Assembly: GCA_001724265.1 (NCBI GenBank)
Contig: MEDY01000136.1
Location: forward strand, 46,258-66,257
Origin: Rhizaria sp. SCN 62-66
Lineage: Eukaryota
Direction: 5' to 3'
DNA length: 20,000 nt
Shown: one piece after another, positions 1 through 17,335 of the stretch
Layout: every line of letters begins with the position of its first letter
Position numbering within the stretch: the stretch's first letter is position 1
Made by a program: the position numbers and the translations under genes
The notes under the pieces: model-generated
What the model saw: the letters and a program-made list of their open reading frames with translations, nothing else
Databases searched by the model: none
Told to the model about the DNA's origin: nothing

Positions 1-3000
1 GACAGCAGCAGCGACCTCGCCGTTGCCGCGGCCGTTGGCGACGCGAACGGCGCGCTGATGAACTACTCCGACCAGGACGACGACGTCGAGGATAGCGACT
101 ACGAAAACGACGCCAAGGCAGTCGCTGAAGCTGTCGCCGCTGCGGAGGCTGCGGCGGCGGCCGCGGGTTTTTCCATTTGCGATGACGACGACGACCACAA
201 CGGCAATCAGAACTATCCGCCGCCGTCGCTCACGCTCAGCCTCAGCCACAGCAGCCACGGCCAAACGAGCCAGAGCCAAAGCCAGAGCCAGAGCCAGCGG
301 CAGAGCGCCGTTGCAGGTGCGCGTGTGAGTGCGAGCGCGAACCCTCCGACGGTTCCACCGCGCCCCAACGTGAACGGCGCCAACACGGGCGCAAGCTCGA
401 GCGCTAGCGCCAACAGCGACGTCAGCTTCGCGCTGCAGTCGCAGTCGACGCTCTCGGCCTCGTCGCCGTCGCTGTCCCCGTCGCAGCTCTCGCTCGCGGT
501 CTCGGTGCCCGCCTCGGCGCCCGCCTCGGCCGCCGGCTCCGGTCCCAGCACCCCCCGCCTTGCCCATACTAGCGGCAACAACGCGGGGGCGGTGACTGCC
601 GGTCTAGCCGTCCCTTCGGCGCGCGCCACGAACAACAGCTCGTTCACCACCAACTCGAGCCCCGGCACTGGTAGCGGCGGCGGCAACGGTGCAGCCCCCG
701 CGGCGCCCCAGCTCTCGCCCGCCAGCAGCGGCCATAGCGCGGCCAGCGCGGCCGCGAGCGCAGGCTCCAGCTCGCTGTTCCGCCACCAAGCCGCCGCCGC
801 CGCTGCCGTTACTGCCGCGGGCGCCGCGTCGTCGTCGCTGTCCCCGGTCGCGGGGTCGCCCCACGGGATCCCCGGCTCCGGCCCCGGCCCCAGCGCCGGC
901 GCCGGCTCCGGCGTGAGTGTAAGTGCGAGCTCCGGCAAGAGCAAGGTGGTCCCGCACGCCGACGCGCGCGCGCGCAACGAGCTGCAGGCGACGGTGGCGC
1001 GGCACGAGCGGCGCGTGCCGCCTGCGGGCGGCGCCGAGTACATCGCCTACGAGATCGCCGTCGCGCGGCCGCCGCTGCAGTGGGCCGTGTGGCGCCGCTA
1101 TAGCGAGTTTCGCGAGCTCGACGCGCAGCTGCGCAAGCTCGACGCCGTGCGCGGCGTGCGCTTGCCCGCGCTGCCCAGCCGCAAGATGTTCGGCAGCCTC
1201 AAGGAGTCATTCGTCGACCAGCGCAAGGCGCAGCTCACCGTCTACTGGGACGAGCTGATGCTGCTCATCGACGTTGTCGGCTCCACCAAGCCCTTCCTGA
1301 CCTTCATCGGTGCGCTCAGGGTGCCCGTTGAGCCCACCGCGGCGCTCGCGGAACTGCAAGTACGTCACAACTTCTGTCGTTGGATTAGAAGATATCTTGC
1401 AAATATGTGTGATTATAATTCTAGTAAAATAATACTATTCCAGAAAGAACTTCCAAATTCCCGCTCATCGCTTGCTCTCGATTTTTTATTCTCTTTCTTT
1501 CCAGGACCGCTTTGTGCGCATGCAGACGCTGTTGACGATCGCGCGCGAGGGCGACGTGGTGCTGTTTCAGACGGCGGGCCTGCTGCAGCGCCTACACCGC
1601 GGGCTACTGAGCACCGAGTACGACCACGTGGGAATCGTGATCCGCATCCCCGAGTTCTCGACCTCGCCGTCGTCGCTGTTCCTCATGGAGGCCACCACGG
1701 ACGGCGTGCTCACCTACCCGCTGCGCCGCCGCCTGCTCGCCTGGTCCTCGTGCGGCGCGCACCTGGCCTACCGCTCGCTGCGCATGCCGCGCTCGCGCGC
1801 CACGGCGACGGCGCTGGCGGACTTCGTGCAGGCCAACGACGGCAAGCCCTACTCGTTCACGCCTGCCAAGCTGCTGCGCCGCGCCTCGCTCAACAACGAG
1901 CGCGGCGAGGCCGACGCCTTCTTCTGCTCGGAGCTCGTCGCCTCGGCGCTTAAGTCGGTCGGCGCGCTCGCGGACCCGCGGCCCAGCTCGTCGTACCTGC
2001 CCGCCTCGTTCGGTGCCAAGGCTGCCACGCCGCTGCTCATGGCCGAGGGCTGCTCTTTCGCCGACGAGGTCCTCATCGAAGTCAAGCCGCTCGAGGTCTA
2101 CTTCGCCAAGGAGGTTGCCGAGTCCGGCTCCGGCATCGGCGTCTACTCACCGGCGCGCAACGGCTCCGGTCTGTCTGCGGCGGCGCTGGCGAGCGCCCAC
2201 GCGGCCAACGCGGCGGGCGGCACCGGGCGCGGGCGCGGCGGCGACTACGGCTACGGCGGCAGCGGCAGCGTGAGCGTGAGCGGCAGCATGCGCGGCAGCG
2301 GCACCAGAGCCCTCGCGGCTGGCACCGCGGCGGCCACCGCGGCCGCGGCTGCTGCGGCGGCGGCCGCCGCGGCGGAGGCCGACTTGTACAGCAGCATACG
2401 CTCGACGTTCGGCAACGACAGCAGCGCGCAGAGCACTTTCGGCGACGACATCTACGTCAACAACGGCACGGGGGCTAGGGCAGGCGCCGGCGGCTTTGGC
2501 ACCGGCTACGACTCTGCGTTCGGCTCCGGCTCGCCGTACGGGGACGAGTCTGAGCCCGACACGCCGTCGCCCGCCACGAACGTCTTCGCCCTCTCCAACT
2601 CCAGCTCTGGCTCGAGTGCCAACGCCGGCGCGAGCGCCAGTAGCGGCGTCAGCAGTAGCGGCAGCAGCAGCGCGCACCGGAGCGGGGTGGGCCACTACGC
2701 GATGCGCAACTCGCCGCGGCTGCCCGCGCGCACCGCCAACGCGCACGCCGCGGGCAGCGGCGGTGGCAGCGGCAGCGGCGCGGTCACGGGGTACAACGGC
2801 GGCCAGCTGCAGCAGCTGCAGCACTTTGGCACTGGCAGAGTCACCAGAAGCGCCAACATCCACAGCGCGAGCGCGAGCAATGCTAACTCCAGCTCTGGCT
2901 CTGGCTCTGGCTCGAGTGTCAGTGGCGGCGGCTTCACAGTCGTGGCTGCGCCTGGGCCTGCGCCTCTCACACTCAACAGAAGCACGAGTAGAGCGAGAGC

Positions 3001-3367
3001 CAACTCGAGCTTTGTCAATGTCACTACAAGCTCAAGCTCCAGCTCTGGCGCAAATGCAGGCTCTGGCGCGTCTCAATCCTTTGACTCAAGCACCAACGCC
3101 AATGTTAATGCTCACAACTCGAACAGCGCTGACTCTAGCACTGCGGCCGCTGCCGGCGATAGAAGGCCCAGTCTGTCCCAGAGGACGTCGGCGCCCGCGC
3201 TGCCGCTGCCCGCGCTGCCCCCGCTCGCCCACAACGCGCACGGCAGTGCTGACGGCGCCGCTGTCAACGAGAGCTTCGACCACAGTAGTCCCGCCAACGA
3301 GGACAATTGCGGCGATCAGTCTGACTCTCGCGACGACGCCGATGACGCTGTCGACGACGGCACCTAG
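1..3367 (+). CDS. PX domain + permuted papain-like (NlpC/P60, YiiX/YaeF C92-type) amidase/peptidase protein with long S/A/G low-complexity regions; 5' end probably outside window; exons <1..1359 and 1505..3367 under the standard code (frame continues to TAA 4303)
   Basis: Frame is open from base 1. PX-like segment ~985-1320 (YIAYEI..WAVWRRYSEFRELDAQL..LPALPSRK..FVDQRKAQL..YWDEL). GTACGT..CCAG phase-0 intron 1360-1504 joins ELQ to DRFVRMQ. GDVVLF..YDHVGIV (His 1625-1627)..GKPYSF..FFCSELVA (Cys 1925-1927): His-before-Cys order typical of permuted NlpC/P60 enzymes. Confidence 0.8.
268..297 (+). repeat. (AGCCAG)n hexamer microsatellite encoding SQSQSQSQSQ
   Basis: agccag agccaa agccag agccag agccag read directly. 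Confidence 0.8.
1360..1504 (+). other. Spliceosomal intron (145 nt, phase 0) in gene 1
   Basis: GTACGT donor, AT-rich body, polypyrimidine tract, CCAG acceptor; joins ORF 58.. frame to ORF 1472.. frame. Confidence 0.9.
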
Positions 3368-4303
3368 AGTGACTGCGCCGACTACCACGGCCACGATGGC
3401 GAGTGCGAGAACAGTGACAGCGACTGTGAACAGCTCCGCGACCAGAGCGCAGTCAACTGGGAGGAGGCCGCGACCAAGGCCTACGCGTCTCCGAAGCACT
3501 ACAGCCGGAGCAGCGGCAACACCCCGGGCACGCCCAGTCTCTGCGCCCTTGGTGCGTCGCATAGAACCGCGAGCACCGGCAGCAACCACAACCACATCGC
3601 CGGCGCTGCTTCTGCTGCTCTTGGTGGCCCGAGTGTGCACGTGTCAGCGTCCGCGTCGCCGTCGCCGATCACGGTCACGCGCGCGCTGCTGCGCACGCAC
3701 TCAAGCGCCAGCTCGCAATCGCACTCGCTCTCGCTCGCCCTCAACAACAACAGCAACGGCAACTCCAATGTCGCTGGCTCGGGCACGAGCTCGCGGGCCG
3801 GATCGCGCGCCGACACGACGGCCGCCGCGGCCGCAGCAGCATCGGCAGCAGCCGCAGCCGCAGCGGCGTCCGTGTCCGTCTCGGCGTCGACGTCGACGGC
3901 GCACAGCTCACCCGGCGCCGCCGGCGGGGCTCTGGCCGCGACGACGACCGCTGGCGCGAGCGCCGGCGGCGCGGGCGGCAGCACCTACAGCCTGGGCTCC
4001 GGCTCCGTGCTGGGCGGCTCGACCGCGAGCAGCGCCAACTCGCTCTCGCAGCTGCAGCAGGAGATGCAACACTCGCACACGCACCTGCAGGCGCTCTCCG
4101 CGGCGCAACTGCAGCACGGGGGCTCCGAACACGGCCACTCCGGCCCGTCCGGCCAGCCGCAGCCGCAGCCTCAAGGCCAAGGTCAGGGCCAGCAGGGTGG
4201 ACTTTGGGCGCGCGTCAACGAGGGCGCGCTGGGCATGCCGCGGCTCGTGGCGAGCCCCGAGAATGAGTCCGAGCTCGTCATTGGCCGCTGGAAGGGCATC
4301 TAA
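3368..4303 (+). CDS. In-frame continuation of gene 1 after TAG 3365-3367 (311 codons + TAA)
   Basis: Same frame as exon 2, no stop from 3368 to TAA 4301-4303. Same GC-rich, S/A/G/Q-rich codon style; ends in non-low-complexity GGLWARVNEGALGMPRLVASPENESELVIGRWKGI. AT-rich UTR-like DNA starts only after ~4320. Confidence 0.6.
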   Translation, partial: SDCADYHGHDGECENSDSDCEQLRDQSAVNWEEAATKAYASPKHYSRSSGNTPGTPSLCALGASHRTASTGSNHNHIAGAASAALGGPSVHVSASASPSPITVTRALLRTHSSASSQSHSLSLALNNNSNGNSNVAGSGTSSRAGSRADTTAAAAAAASAAAAAAAASVSVSASTSTAHSSPGAAGGALAATTTAGASAGGAGGSTYSLGSGSVLGGSTASSANSLSQLQQEMQHSHTHLQALSAAQLQHGGSEHGHSGPSGQPQPQPQGQGQGQQGGLWARVNEGALGMPRLVASPENESELVIGRWKGI

Positions 4304-4814
4304 CTCGCGCAGTGTCACTCTGAAACTTCTAGTTTTGTGATCTGTTTATTCCTTCTGTGTACTGGTACTACACGCTACTTAGTCTTCTTTTTTTTCTCTT
4401 AGTATCTGCTTCTGTTTTATCTTATTTCTTAATCCTATGCTTTCATAGCATGACGTTGTTTGTTTCCCTGTTGCATCCCACTCCCCTCTCCAATCTCTTC
4501 TTCGCTTCACTAGACATGCGCTATTTTCACAATAACAAGTATTATTTTGTTATGTTGGCCTGTTTTTGATGTGCGTCACTTATATCTACACACTTCACAG
4601 TGGTTTTCTCCCCGTTACCTTAGCCCCTCCTCTTCGAACAAACATGCAGACTCAGATGTACCTTTTTGCTTTTATCACGTGTGCATATTATTTATCAGTG
4701 TTGAAACAACATACACTATTATTTTATTACTCACTTGAATTAGCTCGATGGTCTGTATTTCCGGTGTTTTACCATCGTCAAATTCATTCCAACCACATCT
4801 CGCTTGACGCGTGA

Positions 4815-5366: not shown

Positions 5367-8300
5367 ATGTCTAACCTCATCGAGAAGCAGTGCACGCTGC
5401 TCATCCCCTTCGACACCTCCGTCGAGGAGCGCAAGGAATCGACTCTTATGGTACGTAAACGTCGAACTACACATAAAAACGCGCTTAAATCCTAACCACG
5501 CGTGTCAGAGGTTGCTTCTTGCTACGAATTTTGATCCTCGCTCCGTTTTTCTAAGAGGCTAACGCCAATCAGCTCCACCTCGCCCAATGCACATCCTTTC
5601 TCACCCCGTCACTCTCCTTCTCGCGCGCGCTCGCTTGCCCTTCGTTTGCATTCTTCTTTCTTAGAGTCAGCTTGAGTCTCCCGATGACGAGGTGAAGATT
5701 GCGACGCTGAAGGAGATTATTGTGCGCATGCTCAACGGCGACCAGTTCCCCAAGGTCCTCATGGGCGTCATCAAGTACTGCACGCGCTCCGAGAACCACA
5801 CCATCAAGAAGCTCGTCCTGGTCTTTTTCGAGATTGTGGAGCGGAAGTCGGCCGACGGCAAGCTGCTGGCGGAGATGATCCTTATTTGCGACGCGATGAA
5901 GGCGAACCTGAACCACGCGAACGAGTTCATCCGTGGCAACACGCTGCGCTTCCTGACCAAGGTGCGCGACCGCCAGATCATCGAGTCGCTCGTGGCCGAC
6001 GTCATCACCAACCTCTCGCACCGCCACTCGTACGTGCGCAAGTACGCCGCGCTGGCCGTGCACGCCGTCTACGAGGCCTGCCCGGACCTAATCCCCGATG
6101 CGCCGGAGCTGGTCGAGGCGTTCCTCTTCGCGGAGTACAACCCCGCCGCGAAGCGCAACGCGCTGCTCTTCCTGCTGCACTGCGACCCCGCGCGCGCGCT
6201 GGGCTACCTCAACTCGATCCTGCCTACGGTGCACCTGCTGGGCGAGTCGACGCTGCTGGTCGTGCTCGAGCTCGTGCGCAAGGTCGTCGCGTCCACACCC
6301 GCCGTCAAGGGCCAGTACCTCCGCGCGGTGCACAACATGCTCTCGCAGTCTACGTCCACGCCCGTTGTGTTCGAGGCTGCCAACACGCTCGTCGCGCTCT
6401 CCGCCGCGCCCACGGCCGTGCGCGCCGCCGTCGGCGCATACTGCCAGGTCATGACCAGCTCCTCTGACAACAACGTCAAGTACGTCCTGTGGCTTAATTA
6501 TTCCTTGCTCTTTCATTTGAAGTGAAAAACCACTCGTTTTTGAACTGTTCCTTTGAAACTCTCTCACAAACAAATTATACTTCATACTTCTGTGTTCCTT
6601 ATCTTTTAGGCTGATTGTGCTGGCGCGTCTGGCGAAGCTCAAGGCGCGGTTCGCGAGCATCCTGCACGAGCACGTCAACGACATCCTGCAGCTGCTGGCG
6701 ACGCCCAACAGCATCATCCGCCAGCAGGCCGTCGCGCTCGCGCTCGACCTCGTCACCGGCAGCTCTGTCGACGCGCTCGTCACCGCCTTCCGCAAGCACC
6801 TGCTCCTCTCGCAGAGCTCCGCCGCGGGCGCCAACGGCGCCGCCGCCGCCGGGGCTGCTGCGGGCGCCGAGCAGCTACAGCAGCAGCAGCGCTCGTCCGC
6901 AGAGGCGTTCCGCAAGCTCCTGATTGAGGCGTTACACCGGTGCGCCGTGCAGTTCCCCTCGGTCGTCCCGGCGGTGGCGCCGACGCTGATCGCGTTCCTG
7001 TCGGAGCCGACACCGTGGGTAGCCGCGCTGGTGGTGCAGTTTCTCCGCGAGGTCGCCGAGGAGCACCCCGCGCTGCGCCCCGAGCTGCTCGCGCGCCTTG
7101 CCGCCGCGCTCGCCTCAGTCCGCTCCGCCGCCGCCCTCCGCGGCGCGCTCTGGATCCTCGGCGAGTACGCGGGCGTCAGCGAGGGAGTCACCGACGCGGC
7201 GCTTTCCCGCGCCGTCGCCGCCGTCGCCGCGGGCGCGGAGTCCGGGCTTGTGCTTGCCGAGGCCGCCGCCGCGGGCAACGCCGCCCGCGGCTGTCTCTCG
7301 GCCCTGCTCGCCGCGACGGAGCCGCTGCCCATCACGGGCACCGGGGCTGTTCCCGCCGAGGACGGCGCCGCGGCCGGCGCGCCCGTCGAGGGCTCGCCGC
7401 TGCGCGTCATGTTGGCGGGCTCTGAGCCATTCCTGGCGACGGCCGTGGCGACGTGCGCGGCCAAGCTGCTGCTGCGTCTGCGCAAGCTCTCACGCGCGCT
7501 GCGGGCGCCCGTGCCGCTGCCGTCGCCGCGCGACTCTGCGCGCGCGCTGCTGCTCGCGACCTCGCTGCTCACCGTCGCCGCGCCCGTGCTCTCGACGGAC
7601 CCCAGCGCGCCGCGCGCGCCGCAGGAGGTGCTGCTCGAGTACCGCGACACGGCGCGCGCGCTCGAACACGACTCAGCCGAGCGCCTGCTGCTGTGTCTGC
7701 GCACCATGATGTCGCTGCACAACGCCGCCGCGGCCGACGGCGGCGAGGACGCCGACGCCGCCATCGCGGCCGCCGACGCGCTGCTCACCGGCGGCCGCGA
7801 GTCGTACCTGCTCGCGCTCCAGGACCAGCGCCGCCGCACCGCCGCCGCGCACTCCAGCTCCAGTTCCAGCGCCGGTGCCGGCGCTGCCGCGGGCGGCACC
7901 GTGGGCGTTGACCGCAGCGGCGTCAGCGGCGCCGACACGGGCTTCGGCTCGGGCGCACGCGAGGCCGCCTCGGCCGCCGCGGCGCTGGGACTGCCGGCCT
8001 CGGAGGCGACCGTGGGCAGCGGCAACGGCGACGGTAGCAGCCTCGCCAGCCCCGTGTCGAGCGGCAAGAGCAAGACGGGCGGGGCCATCGCGCGCGCCGC
8101 GGCGGCCGCTGCTGCCGCGGCCGCGGCCGTGCACAACAGCGGCACCGTGGCCGCGGCGGCTGAGGTAGACGCCATCATCTCGATCCGGCAGCTGCGCCGC
8201 GGTGCGGACGCGGCGGTCGAGGCCGACATGGGCGAGGGGGACGGCGACGGCAGCGGCAGCGGCGCGGGCAACACGGCCGTCAATACGGCCGACGACCTGG

Positions 8301-9133
8301 ACGTCGCGCTGCACGGCCGCAACACGCGCTCGGTGCTGGACTTGAGCAAGCTGGACCGCGTGTTCCAGCTCACCGGCTACGGCGACCCCGTGTATGCGGA
8401 GGCGCAGGCCACGGTGCTCGAGTTCGACCTGCTGCTCGACGTCACGCTCGTCAACCAGACGGGCAAGCTGCTGCAGAACGTTGGTCTGGAGCTCCACACG
8501 TCGTCGGACATCCGCCTGGTGGACCGCCCGCAGCGGCTCGCGCTGCCTGCACAGGGCTCCGTGACGGTGCAGTGCGCCTTCAAGCTGCTGCGCACCGAGT
8601 CGGGCACCGTGCTGGGCAACCTCTCGTTCGATTCACCGCGCGGCGGCAGCGAGGCGCAAACGGTGATTTGCCTCAACCCGGTGCAGATCGACATCCTCGA
8701 CTTCATCCTGCCCGCCTCGTGCGCGGACGCCGCGTTCCGCACGATGTGGGCCGAGTTCAAGTGGGAGAACAAGATCACGGTCAACACGGACATCACGTCG
8801 CCCACGGCATTCCTGGCACACGTCATCGGCATCACGCACATGCGCTGCCTCACGCCGCCCACGGCTCTGGCGGGCGCGTGCTCCTTCCTCTCGGCCAACC
8901 TCTGCGCGCAGAGCATCTTCGGCGAGACTGCGCTGATGAACCTCTCCGTGGAGCGCACTGCCGAGGGCACGCTGGCCGGCTACATGCGCATCCGCGCCGT
9001 CACCCGCGGCATCGCGCTGGGGCTCGGCGGCAAGCTCATGGCCAACCAGCGCGCCGCTAAGGCCAACAACAGCCTCGGCGGCGCCGCCGCGCCCCTGACC
9101 ACTATCCAGGTCCAAGCCGGCGGCTCTGAATGA
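5367..9133 (+). CDS. COPB1: Coatomer subunit beta (beta-COP); exons 5367..5450, 5665..6479, 6610..9133; ~1140 aa
   Basis: N-terminus MSNLIEKQCTLLI; motifs HTIKKLVLVFFEIV, EMILICDAMKANLNHANEFIRGNTLRFL, HRHSYVRK, SDNNVK/LIVL restored by splicing, ALWILGEY, QLTGYGDPVYAEA, FRTMWAEFKWENKI, FLSANL.AQSIFGE.ALMNLS, RIRA..RGIALGLG. Ends TGA. Confidence 0.97.
5451..5664 (+). other. Intron 1 of beta-COP (214 nt, phase 0)
   Basis: GTACGT..ttctttcTTAG; an alternative in-frame CAG acceptor ends at 5670. Confidence 0.85.
6480..6609 (+). other. Intron 2 of beta-COP (130 nt, phase 2)
   Basis: GTACGT..tcttTTAG; AA+G rebuilds Lys of conserved NNVKLIVL. Confidence 0.95.
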
Positions 9134-9709: not shown

Positions 9710-11729
9710 TTAGCCGCGCGCGGCGTAGGCGACGCCGCCGTGGTGGTGCGCGCCGTGGCCGTCCTCGTCCTCGTCGTCCTCGTCGGCCCCGTAGTCGGTC
9801 ATCATGCCGCCGCGGCCCGCGCCGCCGGCGCCGAGCATGAGCCCGCCGCTGCCGACGGTGACGGCGCCGGCGGCGTCGTCGCCCGCGGCGCCCGCGCCGT
9901 CCTGCGCGGCGCCGTCCTGGCCGCGAGCCTGCTGCGCGCGGTACATGGCCAGCAGTTCGTTGGTGCGCTGCTCGATGACGCCCAGGTAGAGCATCATGTT
10001 GCTCTCGGTGACGCCCGTAGATCCCATCAGCTCGGGCGCCACAAGCGCGGAGCAGCCGACCTTGTGAAAGATGGCGTTGATGCCCTCCTTGAGGCGGCCC
10101 ATAGTGACGCTGCTCTCGGCGCTGCGGCGCGCGTAGTCGTCGGCCGTCTTGTCAGTCGCGCTCAGCTGCGACTCAAGCCCCACAAGAAGCTGCTTCTTGG
10201 CTGAGCGCGCGCCCGCCTCGCGCAGCGCCGCGGCCTCGCGCTGCGTCGCCGCCACCGACTCCTCCAGACGCTCGATCTCGCTCGAGAGGTCGTTGACGTA
10301 GTTGAACATGCGAAACGACACGTCCTCGGCCGTGACGAAGGTGTTGACCAGCTCGTCAATGTCCGTGATCTGCGTCGCCTTCTGAATCTTGGCGAAGGCC
10401 TCCTCGTACGTCTGCACCTTGGCCAGCGCCGCGCGGATGCTCTCGCCGTCCTTGCTCACGTCCTGTGAAAGAAAAAGTGAGTAAAACAAGACAAAGATCG
10501 AAGCGCATGAGTGTGAATATCAACAATCATGGAAATACTTAAGTCAAGAAACCAAATGTCAAAGCAATAAAGGATGAGAGACGAAAGTACGTACCTCGGC
10601 GCCGCGGCGCACGCGCTCCTTGAGCTGGCGAGCCTCCTCCTGGGCGCTCTGGCCGCTGCCGGCGGCGACGACCGCGGTGCTGTTGTTGCTGCTGGTGCTG
10701 GCGTCGGGCGCCATAAGCGCGGGTGTGCCGGTGCTGTCGTGCTTGATGAAGGCCTTCTTGGCGCGGTCATCCTCGATGGCACCCTTGAGCTCGCGCCATT
10801 CGGCCTCGAAGGCGGCCTGGTCACGGTCCGCCTGCTCCTTGAGCGCCAGCATCTCGCTCTGCGCCTCGTCGCGCGTCATGTACGCGTCGTTGGTCACCGA
10901 CACAATCTGCTCCATGCGCGCCTTCTTGTCCTGCAGCTCGCGGTTGAGCTTCTTATAGATATCGTCAAACACGGAGCGCTCGCGCCGCAGCGACTCGATC
11001 TGCCCGCGCAGCTGCGTGTTATGTGCCAGCGCCTCGTTGAACTTGACCAGCGCCTTGTCCAGCCGGTTCTCTAGGATGCGGATCTGCTTCTGCACGGCCT
11101 GGTTGTTCTGGCGGAACGCGTTGACGCCGCCCATCTTCTTGCGCTGCTCCAGGATCGACTCGTTGAGCTGACCCAGGTGCTCGGAGAGCTTCTTCACGCG
11201 CTCGCGCTCCTTGGCAATCTTACGCTGATACAGCTCGCCCTGGTCCTGCAGCTTCGCAATCTGCGAAGACGCAGACATGTTGTTCGCCTGCTTAGCCTGT
11301 GACGCGCGATGACAAGATAGCAAGAATGAGAATGTGGGGGAATGTGAAGAAAAGGTGAGGACAAAACATCAACATGAGGTTGTTAAAAGTAAAATACAGA
11401 TATAACGTAGATAATTTTATCGTATAATACTCCTATTGTCGTAAAACACGTTGATCGTCTTCGCTTGCGTGTCAGCAACGTACCTGGCGGGTCTCGAGAG
11501 CGAGGTCCTCTTTAAGGCGCTCGTTGTCGCGCTTGAGCTTCTCAATCTGCTGGCGCTGCATGCGGAGCGTGCTCTGCGACTCCTCAGTGCCGTGGCGGCG
11601 CGAGAGCTCCTTAAGACGCTGCTTCATCTGCTCGTCCTCGGCGTCGGCGGCCGACGCGGGGGGCGCCGACGCAACCGTGTCGCCCAAGCCCTGCGTCGCT
11701 CCGCGCGAGCGGGGCGCTGCGGACGACAT
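9710..11729 (-). CDS. ODAD1: Outer dynein arm docking complex subunit (Chlamydomonas ODA1/DC2; CCDC114/CCDC63 family); exons 11729..11484, 11296..10595, 10462..9710; ~566 aa
   Basis: Coiled-coil protein with family motifs RKKMGGVNA, KQIRILENRLDKALVKFNEALAHN..LR..I..LRRER..FD, YEEAFAKI..AT..DIDELV..F...ED..F.MFNYVN, GVTESNMMLYLGVIEQRTNELL. Two phase-0 GTACGT..CAG introns. Ends TAA. Confidence 0.9.
10463..10594 (-). other. Intron 2 of ODA-DC gene (132 nt, phase 0)
   Basis: Minus strand GTACGT..CTCAC..tttcaCAG; joins RRGAE to DVSKD. Confidence 0.9.
11297..11483 (-). other. Intron 1 of ODA-DC gene (187 nt, phase 0)
   Basis: Minus strand GTACGT..gtcaCAG; joins LETRQ to AKQANN. Confidence 0.9.
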
Positions 11730-15627: not shown

Positions 15628-17335
15628 TCACTGCTTGGCCATGGTGGTGATGACGGCGTTGCTGCGGTTGTTAGCCCCGTTGACGGCGCCGACCGCGAGC
15701 GGGGCCATGACCGCCGCCGACGGCAGCGACGACGCCGCGGGCGCGTAAATCGACTGCGTCTGCTGATGCGCGCCGCCATCGGCGCTGGCGACGCCGCCAC
15801 CGCCGCTGAACTGGGCCTGCGCGAGCGCGTTGCGCGCCGTGGCGGGCTGGTGGCCGGCGTAGCCGACGACGCCGCGGCGGATTGTTGCCAGCTGGTCCGT
15901 GTTGTCGAGCCGCGCGCGCGCCTGGCCGGGCGGCGCGTGGCGGAGCGCGTGCGCGCTGCCACTGTCGCTGTCGCCGAGGCGCGCGGCGGGCAGGTGGCCC
16001 GCGTAGCCCGCGGGCACACCCGGGAAGACCTTGCTCGTGCCGGCCATCAGGTCCGCCGTCGAGTAGGGCAGACTCGCCGCCGTCGCGGTGGCCATGAGTC
16101 CGCCGGCGTCGGCGCCCAGCGGCCGCGTGCGCTGGCGCGCCGTGAGCGGGGAGATGCCGGCCAGCGAGCCAGTCCCGGGTTCGCCCGACACGCGCGCGCG
16201 CGAGAAGGACCGCGCGAGCGCGTCGCTGCCCACGGCGGCCGCCACGGCCTCCGAGTGCGCCGCGAGCGCCGCCGCCGGGTCCGTGAGGTCCTTGCGGTAG
16301 CTCGATTGAGCCTCCGAGGGCCACAGCGAGCGCGGCGGCACGCTCCAGCGCTGCGTGAACCCGAACGACTGCGTCACCGCGCGGCCCGCGCTCGCCGCGG
16401 CCGCGCCGGCCGTCGCGCCGGGGTTGCCGCTGCCGTAACCGCTGCTGTTGACGGCTCCGGTGGCGATGAAACCGACGCCGCCGCTGCTGCTGCTGCCTTC
16501 GTCATTCGCACTGCTGTAACTGCTACTGCTGTTGCCCGCGCCGTCGGCGTGCGCAATCTGCCCCGCAGTGCGCCGGACGAAGCCGGGCCCGCGCAGCCCC
16601 GCGCCGCGGAAGCCAGTGTAGTAGGCGAGCCCGTCGTTGCGCGAGGAGCGCGCGTCGAGGCTCTCCTGGCGCGGCAGCTGGGCGGAGAAGCCCGCGGGTC
16701 GGCGCGCGGCCAGCGTCGCGCTGTACGTCGTCTCCCACTGCGCCGCGCCGGGCCCGCGTGAGCGGTCGCGCGCCTGCAGCGTGTGGGCCGTCGTCAGCGT
16801 GTCGAACTGCGTGAACGCGGCCGACTTGGCGGGGACAGGCGCGGCAGCCGCGGCGGCGTCACCGTCGGCGTCGCCGTCGGCCACGGCGGCGGCCGCGGCG
16901 CGGAGGCGCGTCTGCGTGAGGTTGGACTTGGACATGGCAGAGCTGGGGCAGGTCCAAGGCCGGTGGCAGAGCCCGTACTCAGAGCGCGGCGGCAGCGCGC
17001 CCGCGGAGTAATTCTCGGGGAAGTAGGCCGAGCGCTTGCTCTGCGTGCCGTGCGAGTTGGACACCCACGTCGTCGAGTCCATCAGAGAGCTGCGCAAGTG
17101 CGTGTGAAAGATACGGGTGATGAGGGAAGATGAGAAAGGTGTTGTGAGTGTGCGTGGGTTTGGGATTCGAGACTAAAGAAGATAGCTTCTGGAGAGGATG
17201 ATGTGATGCTGTTGTGACGTACTTGGGGCGGTGCTCGAAGTTGCCATACTTGAGGGCGGGGGCGTCGATAGGAGGAATATAGTCCCGCTCGAAGCGCTCA
17301 ATGTGTCCCGTGTAGCCGGGGAGTTGAGACGACAT
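15628..17335 (-). CDS. Uncharacterised GYxGH(xP)-repeat protein, probable ciliary microtubule inner protein (FAM166/CIMIP2 or PYG-repeat-like); exons 17335..17223, 17089..15628; ~524 aa
   Basis: Spliced ORF MSSQLPGYTGHIERF..; repeats LPGYTGHI, YYTGFRG, PAGYAGHLP, VVGYAGHQP; also WETTY and SSYRKDL segments. Ends TGA. Gene model is solid; function is inferred from motifs. Confidence 0.7.
17090..17222 (-). other. Intron of GYxGH-repeat gene (133 nt, phase 2)
   Basis: Minus strand GTACGT..ttgcgCAG; AA+C gives Asn and keeps frame. Confidence 0.85.

Follow-up and report, generated by a model that had tools for sequence, protein, structure and literature searches.

The 20,000-nt window analyzed here (contig MEDY01000136.1 of Rhizaria sp. 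SCN 62-66, positions 46,258 to 66,257) contains a gene that joins a PX domain to a C92/YiiX-like amidase domain, and the reading frame of this gene carries an in-frame TAG at 3365..3367 on the plus strand (context ACC TAG AGT). The TAG is genuine, the frame continues across it to a conserved C-terminus, and no intron spans it. We favor the interpretation that it arose recently as a nonsense allele in a wastewater protist whose population is nearly clonal, to which we assign a probability of about 0.5. In the initial annotation, a nonsense allele appeared as a caveat to stop-to-sense reassignment; codon counts and an intact ortholog have now moved it to the front.

The window DNA is nuclear and comes from a GC-rich eukaryote with few introns. 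Its coding GC content is approximately 0.65-0.8, its third-position GC content (GC3) is 0.90, and its spacers are rich in AT. The affected gene begins with an upstream exon at 1..1359 (plus strand) that is open at the 5′ end of the window, and a metagenomic contig, L001, keeps its reading frame open for another 217 nt upstream of the window start. Residues 360-436 of the 1-1359 translation, at approximately 1078-1308, match the Pfam PX family PF00787 with 51.6 bits (cutoff 21.6). This exon aligns with the PX part of an orthologous JGI protein, P0002. It is followed by an AT-rich intron of 145 nt at 1360..1504 (GTACGT...CAG, GC approximately 0.49-0.50), and P0002 is continuous across the junction (...VEDRAVRLDTL vs Q|DRFVRMQTL). 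Bases 1-1359 had previously been taken for a separate gene; they are instead the PX exon of the TAG-containing gene, joined to it over the intron.

Exon 2 covers 1505-4303 on the plus strand and holds the C92 domain, a low-complexity tail, and the final TAA. Its portion before the TAG (1505..3364) starts with the permuted papain-like amidase domain at approximately 1544-1960 and then enters the tail. The domain scores 25.7 bits against PF05708, just below the cutoff of 27, and its candidate catalytic histidine (DHVGIV) and cysteine (FCSELV) are invariant in the window gene and in all eight aligned homologs. Beyond the TAG, an acidic stretch gives way to a disordered region rich in Ser, Ala, Gly, and Gln (3368..4237), in which Pfam finds no family. 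The frame then ends in a conserved C-terminal motif, PRLVASPENESELVIGRWKGI, at 4238..4300, followed by the TAA terminator of the full-length frame at 4301..4303. The AT-rich 3′ flank at 4304..4528 (GC 0.36-0.42) is probably 3′ untranslated region: one contig from X5, a run labeled as complementary DNA (cDNA), covers 4252-4528, and none lies beyond 4566. X5 is rated as probably DNA, so this coverage is only a hint.

Several properties of the frame are unchanged by the TAG. It lies exactly 620 codons from the start of exon 2 (3365-1505), and the frame behind it is free of stops for 311 codons until the TAA. At the position-specific composition of 3368-4300, those 311 codons should contain 5.2 stops, and the probability of finding none is approximately 0.005. 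Because the +1 frame is also open, from 2280 to 4340, the openness of the TAG frame alone is weak evidence. GC3 in the TAG frame, measured in 150-nt steps, stands at 0.84 immediately ahead of the TAG and at 0.80 around it, with values of 0.78-0.94 thereafter; it drops only in the final bin, which spans the TAA. Similarly, overall GC is still 0.65-0.67 around the TAG and falls from approximately 0.65-0.77 to 0.37-0.49 only past 4303. The initial annotation had described an in-frame TAG within a coding exon, a frame open for 311 more codons, and a switch toward AT-richer DNA after the TAA rather than the TAG, and all three points are borne out. It had also placed the TAG in a stretch richer in A/T-ending codons. 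Such a stretch exists, with GC3 of 0.56-0.62 at 2870-3169, and the TAG lies outside it, where GC3 is 0.80. The segment at 2870-3170 is rich in Ser, Asn, and Ala and contains a near-repeat (AACTCCAGCTCTGGCTC...) at approximately 2590 and 2885; this low-complexity segment probably expanded recently and has a relaxed codon bias.

The decisive point for continuity comes from P0002, a protein of 1101 amino acids encoded by one uninterrupted open reading frame with a PX domain, a C92 domain, and a long unalignable tail. It is 77% identical to the window gene over 206 amino acids of the C92 part. P0002 and the window frame share every one of the 19 residues at their C-termini, LVASPENESELVIGRWKGI, which in the window directly precede the TAA; over the longer motif 20 of 21 residues are the same (P0002 ends ...PKLVASPENESELVIGRWKGI, the window frame ...PRLVASPENESELVIGRWKGI). 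The motif is recovered as a second BLASTP segment with E = 1e-10. Because it is shared with an uninterrupted ortholog, we conclude from the sequence that the post-TAG frame still specifies the conserved end of this protein or did so until very recently. A split gene with re-initiation behind the stop is ruled out, as the first in-frame methionine occurs approximately 230 codons after the TAG.

The stop is present in independently assembled DNA. Contigs from three other studies span the site without a single difference: X3 (1300-3692; 2,393 nt), X4 (3241-3737; 497 nt), and X5 (3331-3481; 151 nt). L001, which is 3,207 nt long and the sole match when metagenome contigs were scanned with the gene, has no mismatches to the window in 2,990 nt and ends short of the TAG. 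The four runs together list three single-letter differences over 3,601 nt, and the coding frame past 1537 contains none. The population is therefore nearly clonal, and in such a population a founder mutation is expected in every sample. Metagenomes of at least nine studies, from bioreactors, wastewater, and activated sludge, also contain the window sequence. Neither the metagenome contig scan nor the protein search yielded close relatives covering the TAG site.

If UAG were an ordinary sense codon, it should be common in this DNA. Position-specific composition predicts 58.6 TAG codons among the 4,979 in-frame codons in 11 coding segments of the window, and one is seen (ratio 0.02). Nineteen other codons, all of them sense, have observed-to-expected ratios of 0.27-2.18, and TTG, the closest analog of TAG, is seen 14 times. 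The six other genes (COPB, ODAD1, NOG1, centrin, a beta-adaptin-like gene, and one unknown) contain no TAG in 3,594 codons. If TAG were used like TTG, or if the TTG:CTG ratio were applied to CAG (approximately 11 expected), the probability of one or fewer would be approximately 1e-5 to 1e-4. As had been cautioned at the outset, then, there is a single TAG among some 5,000 codons, and it sits in a linker that cannot be aligned. The counts reject an established reassignment like that of the rhizarian exLh, in which UAG encodes Leu and 384 in-frame UAG codons occur in 71 genes that terminate with UAA (56) or UGA (15) (PMC5304391). The proposal that UAG is regularly read as Gln or Leu in this organism is consequently not supported.

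The identity of the stop is itself uninformative. In this GC3-rich coding DNA, 861 of the 1,131 one-step nonsense changes (76%) produce TAG, so that TAG is the expected outcome of a random nonsense change.

Besides this bias toward TAG and the near-clonality of the population, four considerations lead us to favor a recent nonsense allele. First, the uninterrupted reading frame of P0002 implies an ancestral gene without a stop at this position. Second, in-frame TAG is avoided in the window as a stop would be. Third, both folded domains precede the site, which falls within a low-complexity linker that cannot be aligned, a place where a truncation is most easily tolerated. Finally, the stop has neither a leaky context nor downstream structure. 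A single-base substitution in a fast-evolving disordered linker, for example from GAG, CAG, TCG, TAC, or AAG, would have created the TAG. Under standard decoding, the ribosome would terminate at 3365-3367, and the product would retain the PX domain, the C92 domain, and approximately 400 residues of the tail but would lack the final 311 residues and with them the conserved 21-residue motif at the C-terminus. The mutation would be young, having acquired no frameshift or second stop yet, and hence the downstream frame would still look like coding sequence. Full-length protein would be made at most at a basal, near-cognate readthrough level.

Ordinary premature termination codons share much with this site: a single stop, an uninterrupted ortholog, an intact downstream frame, a position in a disordered linker, and the stop codon that is easiest to reach. 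They differ in that here a conserved C-terminal motif is removed and the TAG is present in every sample seen, from runs dated 2015-2025. If the nonsense reading is correct, the gene provides a natural truncation allele, which would suggest that this PX-C92 protein can do without its C-terminal motif, at least in bioreactors. It would also show that a lone in-frame TAG is a misleading sign in genomes with high GC3, since this codon is the product of three quarters of nonsense mutations there.

Several observations weigh against a simple loss of the C-terminus. All assemblies that reach the site carry the TAG (the window, X3, X4, and X5, from runs of 2015-2025 in at least four studies), and none of them shows an intact allele. 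The C-terminal motif is perfectly conserved even though the catalytic domains differ by 23%, which implies a function that truncation would destroy. Beyond the TAG, 933 nt persist without decay. Lastly, the seven terminators of the window genes comprise four TAA and three TGA codons and no TAG. This distribution fits a lineage that avoids UAG as a stop, a suggestive but not significant result. TAG typically accounts for 20-30% of terminators in GC-rich eukaryotes, and with such a share the probability of none in seven is 0.08-0.21.

Most of these observations would be explained by an incipient or ambiguous decoding of UAG across the genome. Here, a suppressor tRNA(CUA), a weakened eRF1, or both would allow the full-length protein to be made, with UAG purged from terminators and just beginning to enter genes. 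The absence of TAG terminators in DNA with a GC3 of 0.90 and dominant G-ending codons agrees with this idea: G-ending sense codons outnumber A-ending ones approximately 10:1 (CAG 181 vs CAA 16; GAG 240 vs GAA 18). So do the fixation of the TAG in all four covering assemblies and a conserved C-terminal motif that requires translation beyond it. Reassignments restricted to UAG exist in protists, including Iotanema spirale, in which UAG encodes Gln (PMC5304391), and the closest named homolog of the gene is rhizarian, at 40% identity, in a cluster with Bigelowiella natans. Opposing these points, the rarity of TAG calculated above applies to incipient decoding as well, a single codon here contrasts with the hundreds in exLh, seven terminators are a small sample, and the window contains no tRNA gene. 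On balance, we regard incipient decoding as unlikely.

The comparison with the known UAG codes is similarly divided. Like exLh and Iotanema, the window combines an in-frame UAG with terminators that are all UAA or UGA. In exLh, the UAG codons are often found at conserved Leu positions (PMC5304391), whereas the lone TAG described here is in an unalignable region and conserved genes have none. The exLh parallel led us to consider a sainouroid affinity, which we rejected. Nothing ties the organism to that group, and the sole sequenced sainouroid, Rosculus vilicus, has a GC content of 37.7% (PMC10770858), unlike this organism; this also detracts from incipient decoding. The stronger version, an early UAG stop-to-sense change in which the terminators have been purged and this TAG is one of the earliest to be translated, through a tRNA(CUA) or efficient near-cognate decoding, seems to us a slender prospect. 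If true, it would capture a code change at its ambiguous-intermediate stage, and would do so in a GC-rich genome, in which TAG is not expected to be lost through mutation pressure; it would also be a rare case of a UAG-only code change in a non-ciliate eukaryote, caught at very low codon usage. Evidence on how reassignments begin is scarce, and the public metagenomes of the nine or more studies could decide the matter.

Programmed readthrough confined to this gene would also account for a conserved downstream frame. A short isoform would end at the TAG, while a regulated fraction of ribosomes would continue to the TAA at 4303, adding a 311-residue tail with the motif. Both the coding signature (GC3 of 0.78-0.94) and the conserved motif lie downstream in frame, as this model predicts. 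Contigs from the poly(A) and cDNA-labeled runs point the same way, weakly. Exact contigs from the poly(A) RNA run X10 lie at 1525-1705, 2028-2319, 2683-2844, and 3649-3844, and those from X5 at 3331-3481 (with the TAG unchanged), 4122-4272, and 4252-4528. X10 has no coverage in the intron bin or past 4083, and its contigs do not visibly cross the TAG; this missing coverage is uninformative. Together, the contigs give a weak hint that the mRNA is unedited and extends well beyond the TAG, bearing in mind that X5 is probably DNA and that DNA carry-over is possible. A transcript ending near 3367, which had been raised as a possible refutation of translation past the stop, is thus improbable, with the same weakness of support.

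Known readthrough systems, such as viral UAG-CARYYA sites and the peroxisomal-signal extensions of fungi and animals, likewise continue in the same frame past a stop and end in a conserved motif. This site is unlike them in having no leaky context or structure, an extension of 311 residues, and an ortholog whose tail lacks a stop. Specifically, ACC-UAG-A does not resemble the leaky motifs UAG-CARYYA or a +4 C, in agreement with the earlier caution that TAG-AGT is not a classical leaky motif. The predicted RNA fold of 3350-3470 (121 nt) is no better than those of shuffled sequences (z = −0.47; 58 of 200 shuffles were as good). Because the P0002 tail contains no stop, regulation at this position would have to be new to the lineage. 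Thus, the readthrough suggested initially has left no sign in either context or structure, and we consider it improbable.

In a variant of the favored reading, the site would be heterozygous or the population mixed with the TAG as its commoner form, and an intact allele would make the full-length protein. The Logan contigs we used omit minor variants and have a depth of approximately 2-8x, so a second allele could hide. Nevertheless, no other letter appears at 3365-3367 in four runs, and all three spanning runs as well as the window assembly read TAG, which makes this explanation doubtful.

It is very improbable that the stop is removed from the RNA, be it through splicing of a short, unconventional intron or through editing of UAG to UGG or CAG. 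Such removal has no direct support, and we considered it only on account of the conserved downstream frame. The X5 contig at 3331-3481 keeps the TAG, and the start of another X5 contig at precisely 1505, the exon-2 boundary, hints that spliced RNA is represented in that run. In addition, the TAG region has none of the features of the seven recognizable introns in the window, all of which begin with GTACGT, measure 110-300 nt, and are AT- or pyrimidine-rich. No GTACGT occurs on the plus strand between 1360 and 5451; an intron spanning the TAG is therefore excluded, as the initial annotation had stated. A sequencing or assembly error (CAG>TAG), which might be suspected because only one base is affected and the metagenome assembly has modest depth, is the least credible explanation and effectively excluded, given the separately assembled contigs of three other studies that span the site with no differences.

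Outside P0002, the protein belongs to a broader set of protist proteins combining PX and Peptidase_C92 (YaeF/YiiX) domains, represented by the P0004 cluster, P0005, and P0006. These resemble the window gene in the order of PX and then C92 and in the invariant candidate His and Cys. They are more distant, at 31-40% identity, and lack the long tail and motif; the very long low-complexity tail ending in LVASPENESELVIGRWKGI is found in the window gene and P0002 only. P0004, whose cluster includes Bigelowiella natans, has a shorter tail and a different end, P0005 and P0006 terminate right behind the C92 domain, and a Cystoisospora homolog, P0007, has a PH domain instead of PX. Homologs P0004 to P0007 bear a precomputed PF05708 assignment.

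The first protein search was dominated by low-complexity words, and the best 8,000 candidates by shared words were scored. Residues 560-720, around the TAG, had no match to shorter proteins among 1,139 candidates. The 311 post-TAG amino acids, compared with 1.84 billion representatives, gave one marginal low-complexity match (E = 1e-4). A protein-atlas search with the C92 domain returned generic C92-like clusters only, and searches of genome-contig and viral-contig collections with COPB and P0002 found nothing. A predicted complex between the PX-C92 part of P0002 (165-505) and its last 47 residues scored 0.16 with a mark of 0.34 and counts neither way. One X10 contig (record 1), at 1505-1570, is approximately 91% identical to the window (6 differences in 66 nt) and starts exactly at the exon-2 boundary. 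It suggests transcriptional activity of a related species, possibly the organism encoding P0002, in the activated-sludge study that X10 comes from.

The remaining introns and terminators of the window follow consistent patterns. GTACGT intron starts are located at 1360, 5451, 6480, and 12521 on the plus strand and at 17222, 11483, and 10594 on the minus strand. In three introns the sequence extends to GTACGTCAC and in two to GTACGTCACAAC, making the 5′ splice-site consensus unusually rigid for an intron-poor genome, a trait that may aid in recognizing or binning the organism. Terminators are at 4301, 9131, 14892, and 18273 (plus strand) and at 9710, 15628, and 18597 (minus strand). The six genes other than the PX-C92 gene end in TGA and TAA three times each, exactly as first annotated, and TAA is far commoner among the terminators than composition predicts. 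A minus-strand gene at 15631-17172, with approximately 490 codons and one 5′ GTACGT intron, matches no Pfam family. An eRF1 gene is absent from the window.

A second candidate, a minus-strand TAG at 8377-8379 with coding signal on both sides, proved to be an antisense artifact of COPB (plus strand, 6612-9133). The position-1/2 GC of the minus frame (0.39/0.74) mirrors that of the plus-strand gene, and the Pfam matches are on the plus strand. Antisense frames of such GC3-rich genes can be closed only by TAG, which makes them a trap for similar scans.

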